64,000 nucleotides of DNA from Chloroflexota bacterium (GTDB lineage: Bacteria; Chloroflexota; Chloroflexia; Chloroflexales; Herpetosiphonaceae), in contig JAIUOC010000003.1 of the NCBI GenBank assembly GCA_020161265.1, positions 171,024-235,023 of the forward strand, given 5' to 3'. Under the pieces are notes generated by a model. That model ran no database searches and was not told the DNA's origin. It worked only from the letters and a program-made list of their open reading frames with translations. The position numbers and the translations under genes were made by a program. Positions 1-57,165 of this stretch are shown here, piece by piece; the first letter of the stretch is position 1; each line of letters begins with the position of its first letter.

Positions 1-561
1 TGCCAGCATAATGGCATAGTTGGCCGAAAGCACCGCCGCGCTATGATAAAGCACCTTATGCTCAGCTTGAATTGGGCGAGCAATGCCACCAACTGCTTGA
101 ACTAATTCCGCCAGCACGGTATATGACTGAGTTTCAGCTTCAATTGCCCAAGTAATTGCTTGGGGCAAAGGTGTTGTGCGGCTAGCAAAGGGAGCCAATG
201 GATGGCAACCAGCAACCTGCCAACCACGCTGCTGCAATGGTTGCAAAACGGCGCTAGTCAAGGCTCCTGAACAATGCACCACAATTCCAGCGCTATGGCC
301 GAGTGCATCAGCCAAGGCTTGGGCGGTAGTGGCTAAATGATCATCAGGAATCGTCAGAAAGATCAATTGAGCTTGAGCAAATAATTCGTTGGGTACGAGC
401 ACGGGGCATGCAAGGCTTTGGGCTAACGCCTGAGCCGAAGCAGTTGAACGGGAGCTAACGCCGACAATCGAATAATCGGCGCGTTGTAAGGCCAAGGCCA
501 AGGCAGTGCCAACCTTGCCTGCGCCAAAAATGCCGACTGTCGGTCGAGCGGAAAAAGCCAT
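1..561 (-). CDS. Rossmann-fold NAD(P)-binding protein (DUF2520/ProC-like), 5' part; C-terminus lies beyond the window start
   Basis: Reverse translation from CAT at 559-561 gives MAFSARPTVGIFGAGKVGTALALALQRADYSIVGV..., a GxGxxG dinucleotide-binding motif. The frame stays open to position 1. It is absent from the ORF track because it runs off the window edge. Confidence 0.6.
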   Translation of the reverse strand, partial: MAFSARPTVGIFGAGKVGTALALALQRADYSIVGVSSRSTASAQALAQSLACPVLVPNELFAQAQLIFLTIPDDHLATTAQALADALGHSAGIVVHCSGALTSAVLQPLQQRGWQVAGCHPLAPFASRTTPLPQAITWAIEAETQSYTVLAELVQAVGGIARPIQAEHKVLYHSAAVLSANYAIMLA

Positions 562-3730: not shown

Positions 3731-3796
3731 AGAGTTCCTCTGCTAGCTGTTTTTCGCCAAACGCTGCGGCAATTCGCATGCCACAGAGTAGCATAG

Positions 3797-3851
3797 GAAA
3801 GGCAAAAGGCAGAAAGTAAAAGGCAAAAGGCAAAAGGCAAAAGGCAAAAGA
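3797..3851. repeat. Tandem hexamer repeat (aaaggc/aaaggca) x about 8
   Basis: Sequence aaaggcaaaaggcagaaagtaaaaggcaaaaggcaaaaggcaaaaggcaaaag. It generates spurious minus-strand ORFs 3658-4083 and 3690-4001. Confidence 0.8.
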
Positions 3852-3905
3852 AGGGCCAGCCAATGCTGAGGGAAGGTAGTATACACATTGGGGACGAGAA
3901 GCATA

Positions 3906-3996
3906 ATTCGTGCAATCCGTGCAATTCGTGGCTAAAATAATAATCCTTCGCGATCTTCGCGTTCTGCGTGGTTTCAATCCTTCGTGCGCTTCGTGG
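3906..3996. repeat. Clusters of 9-10 bp-periodic (c)ttcgtg/cttcgcg boxes (mosaic repeat module)
   Basis: attcgtgcaatccgtgcaattcgtgg at 3906-3932 and ccttcgcgatcttcgcgttctgcgtggtttcaatccttcgtgcgcttcgtgg at 3946-3996. The second is near-identical to the reverse complement of 31134-31190. Confidence 0.75.
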
Positions 3997-4039
3997 ATCA
4001 CAATGCAAACTTGCTTTTTTATAACGCTTCAAATATACT

Positions 4040-4057
4040 TCAAAATAATTTGAAGCA
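4040..4057. promoter_or_regulatory. Perfect palindrome cttcaaa-N4-tttgaag, putative ArsR operator
   Basis: Sequence cttcaaaataatttgaag lies 20 bp upstream of the ArsR-ArsC start codon. ArsR/SmtB repressors bind dyads overlapping their own promoters. Confidence 0.45.
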
Positions 4058-4077
4058 TTTTGATTTGGAGTATTGTT

Positions 4078-4851
4078 ATGCAAAGCCTTGGGCTTGAACC
4101 ACCTGCTGTGCTCAAATTGCTAGCGCACGATCTGCGTTGGCGTTTGTTACAACTTTTAGTCCATAGCGATTATCGGGTACATGAATGTGTGACGGCCTTG
4201 CAAGCGCCGATGAATGTGGTTTCCTATCATTTGCGACTACTCCGTGAAGCAGCCTTGGTGATCGAACGGCGTAGCGAAGCCGATGGTCGTGATGTCTATT
4301 ACCATCTCGATTTGCCTACCTTGCAAACGGCCTATCAAGCGAGTGCTCAAGCGCTCCACCCTGATCTTGATCCATTTGCTGGTAAATCAACTAGCCAAGC
4401 CTATCAACTTAGCAAACCAGTGCGGATTTTGTATTTGTGTACCCACAACAGTGCTCGCTCGCAATTAGCCGAGGCAATTACCCGCCATCTTGGCGGCTCC
4501 ATGCTCGATGTTGTGAGCGCCGGAACCCAACCTGCTGAGGTGCATCCTTTGGTTTTGGCAACCTTGGCCGAAAAAAAGATTGCCAGTGCTGGCCTGTATT
4601 CCAAGGAACTCCAGCCCTACCTTGAGCAAGATTTCGATTATGTGATTACGGTCTGCGATCGTGCGCGTGAACAATGCCCAACGCTGGCTGGACATCCCAC
4701 CAGCATGCACTGGAGTTTTGCCGACCCGTTGCGTGAAACCAGCGAGCTGGCTCAAGCCGCCGCAATTGAAACCACCGCCCAGCAACTGATGACCCGTATT
4801 CGTTTTTTGCTGACCACAATCGAACGTCAACAACGCGAAGGGAGCAAATAA
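4078..4851 (+). CDS. ArsR-family HTH regulator fused to LMW-PTP-type (thioredoxin-coupled) arsenate reductase ArsC
   Basis: N-terminal ArsR/SmtB wHTH ([34 protein letters not shown]). C-terminal [16 protein letters not shown]5R P-loop plus [10 protein letters not shown], with Cys spacing i/i+7 as in B. subtilis ArsC. GGAG RBS lies 8 nt upstream of ATG 4078. The stop overlaps the next start (TAATG). Confidence 0.75.
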
Positions 4852-5864
4852 TGGCCTTACGAATCGGTATTAATGGCTTTGGGCGCATGGGGCGGCTCGC
4901 ATTACGGGCTGGTTGGAATCGCCCAGGATTTGAATGGGTACATATCAACGAACTTAAGGGCGATGCTGCAACCGCTGCCCATTTGCTGGCTTTTGATTCA
5001 GTTCATGGCCGCTGGAGCCAAGCTGTGCAGGCCGAAGCCCAAGCCCTGATCATCGATCAACAACGCCTGAGTTATAGTAATCATGCGGCAATTGAAGCAA
5101 CCGATTGGGCTAGCCATGAGGTTGATCTGGTGCTGGAATGCTCAGGCAAATTTCGTAGCCCCGAACAACTAGCAGGCTATTTTGCGGCTGGAGTCAAAAC
5201 TGTGATCGTTGCAGCGCCCGTAAAACAGGGTGCACTCAACATTGTGATGGGCGTTAATGATCAGCTTTATGATCCGCAGCAGCATCGTTTATTAACTGCC
5301 GCCTCGTGCACCACCAATTGTTTAGCGCCAATTGTCAAAGTTGTGCATGAACAGTTTGGCATTAAGCATGGCATGATCACCACAATTCACGACATGACCA
5401 ACACCCAAAATTTGATCGATGCGCCGCACAAAGATTTACGCCGCGCCCGCGCCGCCAGCCAATCGCTGATTCCTACCAGCACAGGCTCAGCCAGCGCAAT
5501 TGGCATGATCTTTCCAGAATTGGCGGGTCGTTTGGATGGCGTGGCGATTCGCGTACCTTTGTTGAATGCCTCGCTGACCGATTGTGTCTTTGAATTGACC
5601 CGACCAACCACGAGCAAAGAGGTTAATCGGGCTTTGGCTGAGGCCAGTCGTGGAGTGCTCAAAGGCATTTTGGGCTATGAAGAACGCCCCTTAGTTTCAG
5701 TTGATTACAAGGGCGATCCACGTTCGGCGATTATTGATGCAGCGCTCACGACGGTTACCAACCAAACCCAATTGAAAATTATGGCTTGGTACGATAACGA
5801 AATTGGCTATGTGAATCGAATGTTGGAGCTAGCCGCTAAGGTCGCCCAACTTCAGGCGGGCTAG
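4851..5864 (+). CDS. gap: Glyceraldehyde-3-phosphate dehydrogenase (type I), ars-associated
   Basis: [12 protein letters not shown]-binding N-terminus and the catalytic [10 protein letters not shown] motif. Translationally coupled to the preceding arsRC gene. Confidence 0.85.
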
Positions 5865-5873
5865 GAGCCAACC

Positions 5874-7109
5874 ATGCAGCAACAATTCAAAGAGTATGCG
5901 ATTGTTACCGCCGCCTATTGGGCGTTTACCTTGACCGACGGCGCGTTGCGCATGTTGGTACTGTTTCATTTTCATCAACTTGGCTATAGTGCCTTGGCGG
6001 TGGCGGCGCTCTTTATTTTCTATGAAGTATTTGGGGTGATTACCAATTTGTTTGGTGGCTGGCTGGGCGCACGCTTTGGCCTGAATCGCACCTTACATGC
6101 TGGCTTGGTGTTACAAGTTATCGCTTTGGGCATGATGGTTGTGCCCAGTGCTTGGCTCAGCGTGCCATATGTGATGTTGGCACAAGCTGGCTCAGGTATC
6201 GCCAAAGATCTGACCAAAATGAGCGCCAAGAGCAGCATCAAAATGTTGGTGGCTCAAGATGCTCAATCAACCTTATTCAAATGGGTAGCCATTTTGACTG
6301 GCTCGAAAAATGCGCTCAAAGGCGTGGGCTTTTTCTTGGGCAGCCTATTGCTGAGCACAATTGGCTTTCGCAGTGCCTTCGCCGCGCTTGCGAGTTTGAT
6401 TGCCGTGGCAGCCATTGGCACCTGGATCTTTTTGCAACACGATTTGGGGCGTAGCAAAGCCAAGCCGAAGTGGCAGCAACTCTTTGCCAAAAGCCGCGCG
6501 ATCAATCTGCTTTCGGCGGCCCGCTGTTTTTTATTTGCAGCGCGGGATGTTTGGTTTGTGGTTGGCTTGCCAGTTTTTCTGAGTGAAGTGCTTGGTTGGT
6601 CGTTTTGGCAGGCTGGCGGTTATTTGGCCTTATGGGTGATTGGCTATGGCCTGATTCAAGCGCTTGCGCCACAGATAACCCGCCGCTGGCAAACCACGCC
6701 CAACGGCTGGGCGGCAACAATTTTGGCTGGCTTGTTGATGCTGATTATGGCCGCGATTGCCAGTGTTGTACAAATCAACCAACAATCGGCAGTTGTGGTT
6801 GTGGTCGGCTTAATTGGCTTTGGCTTTATTTTTGCACTGAATTCGGCGGTCCATTCCTACCTGATTTTAGCCTACACCGACCAAGCCGATGTGGCTTTGA
6901 ATGTGGGGTTTTACTATATGGCCAACGCCTTGGGCCGCCTGCTTGGCACAATTCTCTCAGGGCTGCTGTATCAAAGCTATGGGTTGGCGGGCTGTTTATG
7001 GGCAGCGGCCTTACTGAGCGCAATCACAGCCGTTATCTCGTTGAGCTTGCCGCGTGTGCCAAACCAACCATCGTTGGGCGAACAGCAGGCCAAAGCTAGC
7101 TCGATCTGA
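5874..7109 (+). CDS. arsJ: MFS permease ArsJ (organoarsenical 1-arseno-3-phosphoglycerate efflux)
   Basis: 411-aa 12-TM MFS protein 10 bp downstream of the ars-linked GAPDH. The gapdh-arsJ pair is the established signature of this pathway. Not checkable beyond context. Confidence 0.65.
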   Translation: MQQQFKEYAIVTAAYWAFTLTDGALRMLVLFHFHQLGYSALAVAALFIFYEVFGVITNLFGGWLGARFGLNRTLHAGLVLQVIALGMMVVPSAWLSVPYVMLAQAGSGIAKDLTKMSAKSSIKMLVAQDAQSTLFKWVAILTGSKNALKGVGFFLGSLLLSTIGFRSAFAALASLIAVAAIGTWIFLQHDLGRSKAKPKWQQLFAKSRAINLLSAARCFLFAARDVWFVVGLPVFLSEVLGWSFWQAGGYLALWVIGYGLIQALAPQITRRWQTTPNGWAATILAGLLMLIMAAIASVVQINQQSAVVVVVGLIGFGFIFALNSAVHSYLILAYTDQADVALNVGFYYMANALGRLLGTILSGLLYQSYGLAGCLWAAALLSAITAVISLSLPRVPNQPSLGEQQAKASSI

Positions 7110-8737: not shown

Positions 8738-10600
8738 ATGGATGCACATAGTTTGTTGTTGATGGCGGGGATGGTGATTTGTTTTGGGATCGCCACCTTC
8801 GTGCTGGCCGAACGGATTGGCATCCCATCGATTGTATTGTTGCTGTTGGTGGGAGTGCTGGTTGGCCCCGAAGTTTTTGGTTTGGTTGATCCATCGGCTT
8901 TAGGGGTTGGGCTGCGGGTGTTGATTCCGCTGTTTGTGGCGATTATTGTGTTTGAAGGTGGTTTGGTGCTCGATATCAACGATTTGCGCCGTTTATCCTA
9001 CCCATTGCAAATGTTGATGAGCGTTGGAGCCTTGGTGACATGGGGCAGTGCAACCTTGGTAGCGCATTTTGTGGCCGGCTTATCATGGCCACTGGCCACC
9101 TTGTTTGGAGCATTAATGAGCGTGACTGGGCCAACCGTGATCACGCCCTTGATGCGACGTAGCAATGCCAAAGAACGCTTAAAAGTGTTGTTACAGGCTG
9201 AAGGCGTATTGGTTGATGCGGTTGGGGCAATTTTGGCGGTAGTCGTGCTCGATGTTTTGCTTACCAGCGGCACAACGATTAGTGGAGCCTTCGATTGGGC
9301 CGAACGCTTGCTGATTGGCTCGTTGATTGGCTTGGTTGGCGGCATTGGTTTGGCCTATGCATTGCGCTTTATCGGCTCGAAACTCAATGCTGAAACGACG
9401 CGTTTGAGCGCGTTGGGTGGCGCAATCGCGATCTTTATTATTGCTGAAGCGATTTCGCATGAAGCTGGCATTGCGGCAGCAGCAGTTTCGGGGATTGTGG
9501 TTGGCAATATTGATTTTCCTCACGAAGAAGAAGTTGTTCTGTTCAAGGGCGACTTAACCATGCTGGCAATTACGATTATTTTTATCTTGCTGGCAGCTCG
9601 TTTGAAATTTGCCGATTTGGCAGCGCTTGGCTGGTGGGGTGTGTTGGCGGTTGTATTGATGATTGTGGTGGTGCGGCCACTGTGTGTCTTTGCTTCGACG
9701 CTTGGCTCAACCTTAACCTGGCGCGAACGAGCCTTTATTGCTGCGGTTTGCCCACGCGGAGTTGTCGCCGCTTCGGTCGCCACTTTTGCCGCGATCTCAT
9801 TGGAAGAAGCCGGATTTGCTGGGGGCAATTTGTTGATTGGCTTGGTCTTTATGACCGTGATTGGCACAGTTGTGTTGCAAAGCTTCACCACCCCATTGTT
9901 TGCCCGTTTGTTAGGAGTTGAACCGATGACCACTTTAGTTATTGGCGCGAATGATTTGGGCCAGCTGTTTGCCCGCCAACTGCATAGCCAACATCACGAT
10001 GTAGTCGTGATCGATACCGATCAGCAGTTGATCGATCGGGTGCGCCACCATGGTATTAGCACAATCACTGGCGATGCGACTGATCTGCAGGTATTGCGTA
10101 AAGCTGGCGTTGAACGGGCCAAAGCGGTTGTAGCCTTGACCCCGAGTGATAAACTCAATCTGTTGGTGAGTCAAGTGGTGCGTTCGCATTTCAAGGTTGC
10201 AACAATTGTGGCTCGGGCTGAAAATGAGAGTACCAGCAGTGTTTTGCGCGATCTTGGTATTACGGTTTTGAATCCCTTACAAGCATCGGTTGATGCTTTG
10301 ACCCAATTGGTTCAAGGCCCATCAGCCATGAGCATGCTCTTAAGTCATCAAGCCGACCAAAGTATTTACGAAGTTGAAGTATCCAATCCGCGGGTTGTGG
10401 GCAAGCCGTTGAAGCAGCTTAATTTGCCAAGTAATGTCCTGATTGTGGCAATTCGGCGGGCGGGCAACTTATTTGTGCCCGATGGCCAAACCCAATTGCA
10501 AGCAGCTGATCAATTAACCTTGATTGGCACAGCTAGCACAATTCAACAGGCTGATCAACAACTGCGTGAGGGAGCGAGCGAGGCAATGTATCAAGCATGA
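8738..10600 (+). CDS. Monovalent cation:proton antiporter (CPA family) with C-terminal RCK (TrkA-N/TrkA-C) domains, K+/H+ antiporter-like
   Basis: About 11 TM helices, then [17 protein letters not shown]...VVVIDTD (Rossmann RCK) and a TrkA-C segment. RBS aaaggag lies 5 nt before ATG 8738. Confidence 0.75.
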
Positions 10601-22503: not shown

Positions 22504-22683
22504 TGGGGATCGGTTGTTGGGGGTTGGGGATCGGGAGAAGGATGAAGGATGAGGGATGAGGGATGAAATTTAACCACAAGGAATCCCAAGTACACGAATT
22601 AAAATCGTTGAATGTTTGAATTGCCACTAAAATCGAATAGAACGATCAATCCCCACTTCGTGTTCTTCGTGCTCTTCGTGGTT
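22504..22683. repeat. Mosaic intergenic repeat instance (gggatcgg, degenerate (a/g)ggatga x4, gggatgaaatttaac junction, cttcgtg x3)
   Basis: The junction gggatgaaatttaac is shared with 28770-28784. The triplet ccacttcgtgttcttcgtgctcttcgtgg is at 22655-22682. Confidence 0.75.
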
Positions 22684-25904: not shown

Positions 25905-26117
25905 AGAACATAGAGCATAGAGCATAGAACATACATTATTAACCGCGAAGAGGATATGGCTATAGGCTATGGGCTATTGGAAGATTGGTTGAAATTGCAA
26001 ATGATCCGATAGCCTATAGCCAACGTGCTCTGATCCTCTGTGTTAATGATGATCTCTGACCCCTGACCCTTAGCCCCTAACCTTACCTTCGTGCCTCTTT
26101 GTGCCCTTGGTGGATCA
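25905..26117. repeat. Mosaic intergenic repeat instance (catagag/catagaa run, gctataggc, ccgatagcc, ctgacccctga, cttcgtg-type triplet)
   Basis: acagaacatagagcatagagcatagaacata ... ctctgacccctgacccttagcccctaacc ... ccttcgtgcctctttgtgcccttggtgg. Confidence 0.75.
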
Positions 26118-28622: not shown

Positions 28623-28950
28623 CATAGAGCATAGAACATAGAGCATAGAACATATAAGGGATGAGGGATGAGGGATGAGGGATGAGGGATGAGGGATGAG
28701 GGATGAGGGATGAGGGATGAGGGATGAGGGATGAGGGATGAGGGATGAGGGATGAGGGATGAGGGATGAGGGATGAAATTTAACGCGGCGGAGCAAAGGG
28801 TGAGGCTATAGGCTAGCGGAGCGTGGTTAAAATCCTAACATTGGTTCCGCTAGCCAAACGTCAATAGCCAAGAGCCTCAGCTTCGTGAGCTTCGTGCCCT
28901 TCGTGGATCAAAAACAACATTCCAATAGCCCATAGCCCATAGCCTATTGC
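28623..28950. repeat. Mosaic intergenic repeat instance, most complete copy (catagag run, (gggatga)17, aaatttaac junction, gctataggc, ccgctagcc, cttcgtg x3, ccaatagcccatagcccatagcc)
   Basis: Direct reading. All modules also occur at the other listed instances, in varying order and orientation. Confidence 0.85.
28658..28776. repeat. Perfect heptanucleotide microsatellite (gggatga) x17
   Basis: 119 bp of uninterrupted gggatga units, counted from the sequence. Confidence 0.95.
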
Positions 28951-56986: not shown

Positions 56987-57165
56987 CCGCGAAGGACACA
57001 AAGGATACGAAGCTGAGGTTATAGGCTTTTGATGCTCCAACGCATCCCCGATAGCCAAAAGTCTTCAGCCCATACCCTGAAAATCAACATTTATGCTTTT
57101 CGTAGTTGAAACCATTGGTTTTATGCTCTATGTTCTATGTTCTGTGCTCTATCGTTGTTCTATCT
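56987..57165. repeat. Mosaic intergenic repeat instance (reverse orientation: cttcgtg-type, ctataggc, ccgatagcc, catagag-type run)
   Basis: ccgcgaaggacacaaaggatacgaag ... gaggttataggc ... atgctctatgttctatgttctgtgctctatcg. Confidence 0.7.

Follow-up and report, generated by a model that had tools for sequence, protein, structure and literature searches.

An arsRC-gapdh-arsJ operon of Herpetosiphon and its ArsR-ArsC fusion, a candidate autorepressor with a possibly arsenate-sensing enzyme domain

How is an arsenate exporter switched on when the repressor encoded in front of it is joined to an arsenate reductase domain? This question was raised by positions 4,040 to 7,109 of a 64,000-nucleotide stretch (hereafter, the window) of contig JAIUOC010000003.1 from the Chloroflexota assembly GCA_020161265.1. 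A reading made from the sequence alone had described the locus as an arsenate-resistance operon encoding an ArsR-ArsC fusion, a glyceraldehyde-3-phosphate dehydrogenase (GAPDH), and the permease ArsJ. We found that the window is DNA of a Herpetosiphon species and that the operon is a three-gene arsenate-resistance system, arsRC-gapdh-arsJ, of a known and already annotated kind. We propose that it is autoregulated and probably arsenate-inducible, with the ArsC domain of the fusion (ArsRC) as the signal-receiving module, and give this reading a probability of roughly 0.7.

Gene content and identities

The operon is laid out as follows.

4078-4851, plus strand: arsRC, a 257-aa fusion of an ArsR/SmtB winged helix-turn-helix (wHTH) and a thioredoxin-type ArsC of the low-molecular-weight protein tyrosine phosphatase (LMW-PTP) type; exact match to NCBI MCA0351928.1
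4078-4362, plus strand: wHTH part of arsRC (ArsR/SmtB), residues about 1-95
Residues about 96-112, plus strand: variable linker of arsRC, between the wHTH and the ArsC domain
4414-4848, plus strand: ArsC/LMW-PTP part of arsRC (thioredoxin-type ArsC), residues about 113-257
4851-5864, plus strand: gapdh, 337 aa, ArsJ-associated GAPDH, with the same name at NCBI
5874-7109, plus strand: arsJ, 411 aa, a major facilitator superfamily (MFS) permease, matched by an equivalog profile
4067-4070, plus strand: ribosome-binding site (RBS) GGAG of arsRC, part of a TTTGGAG that does not vary in the Herpetosiphon alignment, 7 nt before the ATG

The region consists of three co-directional open reading frames (ORFs). 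That of the fusion begins mechanically at TTG 4060, and its real start is ATG 4078: from there, the product is collinear with 105 homologues and aligns end to end with those of 257 aa. These 105 proteins of about 240-285 aa, out of the best 120 database matches, form the fusion alignment used throughout. The last A of the arsRC stop, TAA (4849-4851), is also the first base of the gapdh ATG (4851-4853), so that the two genes are coupled by a TAATG overlap, as first read; gapdh has an RBS, GGGAG, 6 nt upstream of its start. The gap between gapdh and arsJ is 9 nt, and the arsJ RBS, AGGAG, overlaps the gapdh stop. Identity of the fusion to its counterparts was 95.7% for the protein in the H. aurantiacus record ABX05966 and 86-88% for those in H. 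llansteffanensis and one further Herpetosiphon genome.

The arsJ product matched MFS_ArsJ (NCBIfam NF033734) over profile positions 1-392 of 392 with 579.5 bits (cut-off 400), and the next-best MFS models had E > 8e-4, around 1e-3; the permease is an ArsJ, not a sugar or drug exporter. Likewise, the dedicated GAPDH of the sequence-only reading was borne out by a match of 550.7 bits to G3PDH_Arsen (NCBIfam NF033735, cut-off 450), and the protein carries the catalytic Cys153 in SCTTNC, His180, and an NAD-binding GxGxxG (GINGFGRMG from residue 6). Pfam matches were Gp_dh_N and Gp_dh_C in GAPDH and MFS_1 in ArsJ. All three window proteins are already named at NCBI, these two as ArsJ-associated GAPDH and organoarsenical efflux MFS transporter ArsJ. 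From the curated profiles, As(V) resistance by efflux through ArsJ together with GAPDH is predicted. The earlier statement that GAPDH makes 1-arseno-3-phosphoglycerate and that ArsJ exports it is upheld as to the gene identities; the exported species is disputed, being either 1-arseno-3-phosphoglycerate or free arsenate (PMC9601151).

A tblastn search of the 64-kb window (E<=0.01) yielded no Acr3, ArsB, ArsH, CDKN3/VarH-like phosphatase, MIP, or ArsM-like methyltransferase, Acr3 and ArsB each being represented by one reference sequence. Only the ArsC queries matched, at 4411-4728. The absence of arsB and acr3 from the window was thus confirmed. The claim that had been built on it, that the route needs no arsenite pump, holds for the published ArsJ route but does not follow for this operon: turnover by the ArsC domain would make As(III), for which an outlet would have to be encoded elsewhere in the genome, so the claim cannot be extended to the organism from the window alone.

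In layout, the operon resembles the gapdh-arsJ module of Pseudomonas aeruginosa DK2 (Chen et al. 2016, as cited in PMC6205960) and the var operon of Vibrio cholerae, arsR-varG-varH-arsJ (PMC9601151): a GAPDH gene lies beside that of an ArsJ MFS permease, both within a single transcription unit and downstream of the gene for a regulator of ArsR type, and the two NCBIfam profiles matched here were made for this very module. It differs from both in that the regulator is fused to ArsC and lacks As(III)-binding cysteines. In addition, the window contains no VarH/CDKN3-like phosphatase gene, unlike the var operon, and no nearby arsenite pump, arsH, or other ars gene, unlike the Pseudomonas islands.

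The two halves of ArsRC and the question of the sensor

The N-terminal half of ArsRC scored 23.8 bits against Pfam HTH_5, just over the cut-off of 22, and 50.9 bits against NCBIfam HTH_metalloreg, just under the cut-off of 55. Its sequence matches in the Protein Data Bank (PDB) were ArsR 8qkf (2.7e-6), SmtB, and PagR. The AlphaFold model of the full fusion had a mean predicted local distance difference test score (pLDDT) of 90.2 and a predicted template modelling score (pTM) of 0.85, with low pLDDT in the linker. It folded the N-terminal half as a wHTH of the order α1-α2-α3-αR-β1-β2-α5, with helices at 18-29, 34-41, and 45-57, strands at 61-65 and 73-77, and a helix at 79-93. With HTH_5 and LMWPc both over their cut-offs and an ArsR-type fold in the model, the fusion of an ArsR wHTH to an LMW-PTP-type ArsC stands as first described.

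Known ArsR proteins bind As(III) through a type 1 CVC in α3, a type 2 C-terminal CCx5C, or the N-terminal site of the Corynebacterium type. No cysteine site of type 1, 2, or 3 was present in the ArsR half. The sole cysteine of this half in the window protein, C37, is Leu in 98 of the 105 relatives, and 88 fusions have no cysteine at all in the ArsR half and linker. At the classical CVC positions the window protein holds R-V-H, and the fusion family has a conserved D-Y/H-R-V-H/Q/N-E where the split ArsR of Deinococcus carries HCVCDL. Stand-alone ArsRs encoded beside stand-alone relatives of the ArsC domain contain 2-8 cysteines. A metal site of the SmtB/CzrA type in α5 was also considered and is unlikely, as this helix offers one conserved His (H94) in the alignment. 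Since the ArsR half lacks As(III)-binding cysteines, ArsRC does not fit the picture of a plain As(III)-responsive ArsR.

A different solution is seen on plasmids of Aliiroseovarius crassostreae (L089, Paracoccaceae), where the same operon is annotated as an HTH protein, an ArsJ-associated GAPDH, and ArsJ. The order of ArsR then ArsC, the three-gene operon, and the overlap of the fusion with gapdh are shared with the window, but the two fusions are just 33% identical and the cysteines of the ArsC domain are spaced C-x7-C rather than C-x6-C. Moreover, the Aliiroseovarius protein has a C-C-x5-C motif (DCCRGRPANC) between its domains, whereas the window protein and its family have none. We take this motif to be an As(III) site of the type found in the ArsR of Acidithiobacillus ferrooxidans. 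Such a site would fit the account of the Paracoccus ArsRC in a review (PMC11672702), where an ArsR that senses As(III) is said to be linked to a reductase.

In the C-terminal half, the reductase motifs were located as follows.

4438-4461, plus strand: P-loop C121-T-H-N-S-A-R127-S128 (CX5R-S), of which CTHNSAR occupies nt 4438-4458
4654-4677, plus strand: redox pair C193-DRAREQ-C200 (C-x6-C), equivalent to Cys82/Cys89 of pI258 ArsC and Cys87/Cys94 of Deinococcus indicus ArsC2

The CTHNSAR loop and the distal cysteines are therefore where the sequence-only reading had placed them, at residues 121-127 and 193-x6-200. This half scored 53.1 bits against Pfam LMWPc (cut-off 23.2). C121, T122, N124, S125, A126, R127, and S128 of the P-loop were invariant in all 105 fusions, as were C193 and C200 and the DP motif with the general-acid Asp (D216-P217). 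The best solved relative was D. indicus ArsC2 (8p5n, E 5e-27), whose catalytic cysteines are Cys15, Cys87, and Cys94, with their roles given in PMC10483234. In Foldseek, the AlphaFold model superimposed on 8p5n with a TM score of 0.93 and a root-mean-square deviation (rmsd) of 1.4 Å, on 8p5n/8p6m together with 0.91-0.93 and 1.2-1.5 Å (LMW-PTP fold), and on the ArsCs of pI258 and Bacillus subtilis with TM 0.84-0.88; the catalytic residues align to those of 8p5n and 1lju. The matches spanned the ArsC half only, no full-length ArsR-ArsC structure being present in the PDB. The ArsC domain may, in addition, be a genuine reductase.

In the Herpetosiphon type, with the ArsR thiols absent, arsenic chemistry has no thiols to draw on but those of the ArsC triad. 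An ArsR half without As(III) sites, joined to an invariant triad, suggested that the fused ArsC half is probably the part that does the sensing. A pTM of 0.85 for the two-domain chain suggests that the domains may pack against each other in a defined way.

The same residues would also serve an uncoupled bifunctional protein, in which the ArsR half, as an ordinary autorepressor, fixes expression at a steady level or answers to a non-thiol signal, and the ArsC half is a thioredoxin-dependent arsenate reductase merely co-expressed by the fusion; the As(III) formed would then exit by an Acr3/ArsB pump or an aquaglyceroporin whose gene lies in another part of the genome. All catalytic residues of a thioredoxin-type ArsC are invariant, the fold matches an active enzyme, the linker is variable, and ArsRC has been described as 'working as ArsR and ArsC' (PMC4443643, PMC6205960). 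The fusion is also collinear with the adjacent arsR and arsC genes of the Deinococcus arsR-arsC-arsB-arsC operons, whose D. indicus ArsC2 (8P5N/8P6M, PMC10483234) has the same Cys triad and is about 39% identical to the ArsC half in the Foldseek alignment. In Deinococcus, however, the genes are separate, ArsR keeps its HCVCDL arsenite site, and the ArsB pump is encoded in the same operon. An uncoupled fusion would leave unexplained why the As(III) cysteines of ArsR were lost in 88 of 105 proteins while the fusion was kept across phyla. Among the neighbour classes that were annotated within 4 kb of 50 fusion loci, arsenite pumps do not recur, and none is present in the window; besides, a reductase encoded ahead of an As(V) exporter would draw on the same substrate as the exporter. 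We consider this explanation rather unlikely.

The CX5R chemistry of the domain could also suggest an analogue of VarH, that is, a hydrolase splitting 1-arseno-3-phosphoglycerate to 3-phosphoglycerate and As(V) instead of a reductase. VarH of V. cholerae is a Cys/Arg-dependent phosphatase whose gene lies between gapdh and arsJ; full resistance to As(V) depends on it, and 1-arseno-3-phosphoglycerate increases when it is lost (PMC9601151). On a Pseudomonas plasmid, too, gapdh is preceded by a gene for a CDKN3/KAP-like phosphatase. Yet VarH has a dual-specificity phosphatase fold, not that of LMW-PTP (PMC9601151), and invariant C193 and C200 are a trait of reductases rather than phosphatases. Neither gapdh nor arsJ lies near most fusion genes of the family, and sister genomes kept the fusion after losing gapdh. 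Accordingly, we regard a VarH-like role as very improbable. Apart from this, the plasmid gene, which lies between arsH and the ArsJ-associated gapdh of Pseudomonas shirazica (L088:8056-8556) and encodes a CDKN3-family protein, is likely a VarH homologue. Its position next to gapdh indicates that this pairing is not confined to Vibrionaceae, contrary to PMC9601151.

Operator-like dyad and gene neighbours across the family

Upstream of arsRC, the following elements were found.

4011-4016, plus strand: putative -35-like hexamer TTGCTT; CTTGC is invariant in five Herpetosiphon loci
4034-4039, plus strand: putative -10-like hexamer TATACT, 17 nt past the -35; present in 4 of the 5 loci (TATGAT in L002)
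4039-4054, no strand assigned: operator candidate TTCAAAATAATTTGAA, conserved 16-mer core of the dyad at 4038-4055

The dyad had been described as perfect and as lying 20 bp upstream of the gene. It is real and operator-like and has a conserved core, but cttcaaaataatttgaag (4038-4055) consists of 7-bp perfect arms, CTTCAAA and TTTGAAG, around a 4-nt ATAA spacer and is not an 18-bp perfect palindrome; the distance from its end to the ATG is 22 nt. The outer C/G pair of the 18-mer is not conserved in relatives, so the conserved core is the 16-mer, within which TTCAAA-NN-AATTTGAA is invariant in the five Herpetosiphon loci. This core is a perfect 16-bp palindrome in H. llansteffanensis (TTCAAATTAATTTGAA), whereas in the window core the symmetry is broken by one central base.

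Similarity among the five loci starts abruptly at CTTGC (4010-4014) and runs through AATAT at the -10 region, which is also invariant, and through the core to the RBS. The upstream flanks are unrelated: the neighbour is an MscS-like gene here, in H. aurantiacus it is one for a short-chain dehydrogenase/reductase (SDR), and in H. llansteffanensis there is a gene of 120 aa and then recG. From this conservation we infer that TTGCTT-17 nt-TATACT is the promoter, although a consensus promoter scan did not flag it. The dyad begins on the last base of the predicted -10 box; abutting the -10 box is the usual position of an ArsR/SmtB operator. No convincing terminator was found after arsJ in the promoter/terminator scan, and the downstream flank common to the Herpetosiphon lineages comprises a 79-aa YtxH-like gene, a cysteine synthase gene, and TrkA genes. 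As a separate observation, synteny breaks exactly at the -35 box (window 3731-4010 against L084:7828-8000, L083:6742-7160, and L002). An upstream copy of CTTCAAA (4027-4033) and an alternative dyad, I1, were rejected as operator parts, as neither is conserved in relatives.

The site recurs far beyond Herpetosiphon. The fusion loci compared, 50 in number, came from representative genomes of Chloroflexota, Actinomycetota, Acidobacteriota, and Alphaproteobacteria; TCAA-N6-TTGA was found within 150 nt of the fusion gene start in 31 of them, against a background of 0.008 per 300 nt, and 34 of its 48 occurrences in 642 kb sit at a fusion gene start. It usually reads ATCAA-N6-TTGAT and usually lies 10-50 nt upstream of the gene. 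Its presence at fusion genes across phyla points to a conserved cis element at the family's own gene, as autoregulation predicts. Ahead of the Aliiroseovarius operon, the inverted repeat is instead TTCAT-N6-ATGAA, with 5-bp arms and a 6-nt spacer. Within the 64-kb window, WTCAA-N6-TTGAW occurred twice against 0.41 expected. The second match, ATCAATTAACCTTGAT (10509-10524), lies inside the 3' end of a Na+/H+ exchanger-TrkA gene, 73 nt ahead of a TrkA-domain gene start at 10597, and may be due to chance, since 5 of 100 shuffles reach two. In many actinobacterial loci (sites of L035-L050), the operator ends in TTGATG, whose ATG may be the start codon; if so, the operator would lie at the extreme 5' end of a leaderless transcript.

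The sequence-only reading had called a reductase fused to the repressor unusual, but such fusions are widespread. They have been published from Leptospirillum ferriphilum, Microbacterium, Sinorhizobium, and many Actinobacteria, and make up two clusters of actinobacterial ArsCs (PMC6205960, PMC6514093); 105 of the best 120 matches aligned as fusions here, and the operon itself recurs. L. ferriphilum, Microbacterium sp. A33, Sinorhizobium, and the actinobacterial clusters C4/C7 also have a single chain of ArsR and thioredoxin-type ArsC, encoded in operons with arsB or acr3 (PMC6205960, PMC6514093), whereas the window fusion stands before gapdh-arsJ; these were compared by description only. The gapdh-arsJ pair was also found in H. 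aurantiacus, H. llansteffanensis, Oscillochloris, and Aliiroseovarius. In Oscillochloris sp. ZM17-4 (L046), fusion, gapdh, and arsJ form an operon in which the fusion gene overlaps gapdh. The fusion of this operon has a diverged recognition helix and is preceded by a near-consensus promoter, TTGACA-N17-TATAAT; a second ArsR-ArsC fusion (L046:5918-6673, minus strand) is divergent from the operon.

At least four of the best 120 matches, of 406-431 aa, have a second LMWPc domain. Three-domain variants with ArsR and two LMWPc/ArsC domains were seen in P0018, P0023, P0010, and P0022, and at loci L006, L012, L013, L023, and L027; in P0022, the HTH is flanked by one ArsC domain on each side.

Downstream of the fusion, most of the 50 loci look unlike the window. 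The directly following gene encodes a VOC/glyoxalase protein in 15 loci, four of which then continue with ChrA, a metallophosphoesterase in five, an ArsC paralogue in four, ChrA in three, and an aquaporin in two; gapdh or arsJ follows directly in just three. Judged by these neighbours, most fusion relatives would regulate other genes, for VOC, ChrA, phosphoesterase, or aquaporin proteins. The VOC-linked loci were the following.

L018, L020, L021, L024, L025, L032, L033, L035, L036, L038, L039, L043, L044, L048, L049: VOC-linked fusion loci

The VOC/glyoxalase protein is cysteine-free and about 128 aa long, and in Actinomycetota as well as some further phyla its gene is overlapped or directly adjoined by that of the fusion. 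The resulting arsRC-VOC(-chrA) cassette, with the ChrA chromate transporter in four loci, is conserved and has no obvious arsenic function.

These neighbours raise the possibility that ArsRC is a general sensor of oxyanions or thiol oxidation which was recruited to the arsJ cassette, with chromate, arsenate, phosphate analogues, or disulfide stress as the inducer. The predominance of VOC/glyoxalase, ChrA, and metallophosphoesterase genes, set against gapdh/arsJ in 3 of 50 loci, speaks for such a sensor, and the P-loop of LMW-PTP/ArsC proteins binds tetrahedral oxyanions generally. On the other hand, the domain is nearest to proven arsenate reductases, the aquaporin, methyltransferase, and ArsC-paralogue neighbours are arsenic-related, and the genes regulated in the window are arsenate-specific by curated profile. 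We judge a general sensor to be improbable.

Two kinds of intergenic repeat were noted in the window. Heptanucleotide tandem repeats, which resemble the short tandemly repeated heptamers known from filamentous cyanobacteria, occur at 3798-3850, 22537-22567, 25905-25933, 28623-28654, 28657-28776, 28925-28944, and 57118-57152; AAAGGCA is repeated 7.6 times just upstream of the operon, and AGGGATG 17 times, perfectly, at 28657-28776. A family of 9-mers built on CTTCGTG (AATTCGTGC, CTTCGTGCT, AGCTTCGTG) occupies several intergenic regions (3905-3930, 3942-3995, 22656-22680, and 28879-28905), among them the 348-bp spacer upstream of the operon.

Proposed mechanism, gapdh losses, and significance

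Here, we propose a model of an arsenate-inducible, autoregulated operon by summarizing the above results. ArsRC, presumably dimeric, would bind the TTCAA-N6-TTGAA dyad and, because the dyad abuts the -10 box, would repress transcription of its own operon. Exposure to arsenate would release the repressor, and the three translationally coupled genes would then be expressed. GAPDH would join As(V) and glyceraldehyde-3-phosphate to form 1-arseno-3-phosphoglycerate, and ArsJ would clear arsenate from the cell, as this compound or as free As(V). For the release itself, the Cys121/Cys193/Cys200 triad would either run the reduction cascade to a Cys193-Cys200 disulfide with a looped-out segment or trap As(III), and the change in the ArsC domain would be relayed to the DNA-binding half. 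Rearrangement of the Cys82-Cys89 segment is established for pI258 ArsC. Repression, the inducer, the sensing role of ArsC, and the exported species are all points that we infer. For comparison, As(V) induces the arsR-gapdh-arsJ operon of V. cholerae, whose ArsR is suspected to sense As(V) (PMC9601151).

Several points weigh against this model. The linker differs among the fusions in both length and sequence, and its pLDDT is low, which speaks against rigid allosteric coupling. The ArsC half scored only 73.4 bits against the pI258-type equivalog TIGR02691 (cut-off 174.3), as well as 65.1 bits against PRK13530 (cut-off 215); having missed the pI258 equivalog cut-off, it is a divergent branch, closest to D. 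indicus ArsC2. In Oscillochloris, the operon is the same but lacks a TCAA-N6-TTGA site. The genes without an arsenic role behind most fusions (VOC, ChrA, and metallophosphoesterase) suggest that the signal may exceed arsenate. Thioredoxin would be expected to re-reduce the switch fast, and true As(V) reduction would yield As(III), for which the window encodes no pump. Finally, the support for this organism comes from homology and conservation, and the interface between the domains is putative.

A narrower claim is that the Herpetosiphon-type ArsRC represents a class of transcription factors that sense arsenate or oxyanions directly, arsenate attack on Cys121 leading through the Cys121-Cys193-Cys200 disulfide cascade to a loop rearrangement and so to release from the TCAA-N6-TTGA operator. 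We advance it tentatively, as a possibility with clearly less than even odds. If true, it would be a redox switch coupled to enzyme turnover, making an As(V)-export route inducible without prior build-up of As(III).

The role of gapdh was illuminated by two sister genomes. In the Herpetosiphon genomes of L001 and L002, the fusion is followed directly by arsJ, without gapdh, while a complete genome of H. llansteffanensis (L083) carries the full trio there; L083 and L002 are 98.4% identical in the fusion and 97.8% in ArsJ. Remnants of the lost gene were located by comparison with the intact copy.

L001:8774-8806: gapdh scar, against intact gapdh at L083:8001-9026
L002:8774-8830: gapdh scar, against the same intact gapdh

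The L002 scar keeps the first 13 codons of gapdh and its stop region as a 14-codon mini-ORF, and the L001 scar keeps the ATG and about five terminal codons as a 6-codon mini-ORF. Both are in frame and retain the TAATG overlap and the AGGAG before arsJ. As their endpoints differ, gapdh appears to have been lost twice independently, with arsJ remaining translationally coupled. An assembly artefact was rejected, since the scars differ, are in frame, and, in L002, contain diverged codons. Linkage of gapdh to arsJ is therefore not obligatory. This agrees with V. cholerae, in which ArsJ was found to be the chief determinant and the dedicated GAPDH to count at high As(V) only (PMC9601151). The two deletions constitute a natural experiment on whether ArsJ needs a dedicated GAPDH, which in turn bears on whether 1-arseno-3-phosphoglycerate or free arsenate is exported.

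The operon in itself adds little, as gapdh-arsJ modules and ArsR-ArsC fusions have been described and the genes are already named. What is new here is the cysteine-free ArsR half beside an invariant ArsC triad, the twin gapdh deletions, and the non-arsenic neighbours of most relatives. ArsRC is also a candidate part for arsenate-specific biosensors; a Paracoccus ArsRC has been used in a whole-cell biosensor, where it made the detection of As(V) better (PMC11672702). The family bears on the question of As(V) versus As(III) sensing that the V. cholerae work left open (PMC9601151). Taken together, the cysteine-free ArsR half, the ArsC triad, and the family-wide operator would define a large, phylum-spanning family of regulators that may receive their signal through an enzyme domain.

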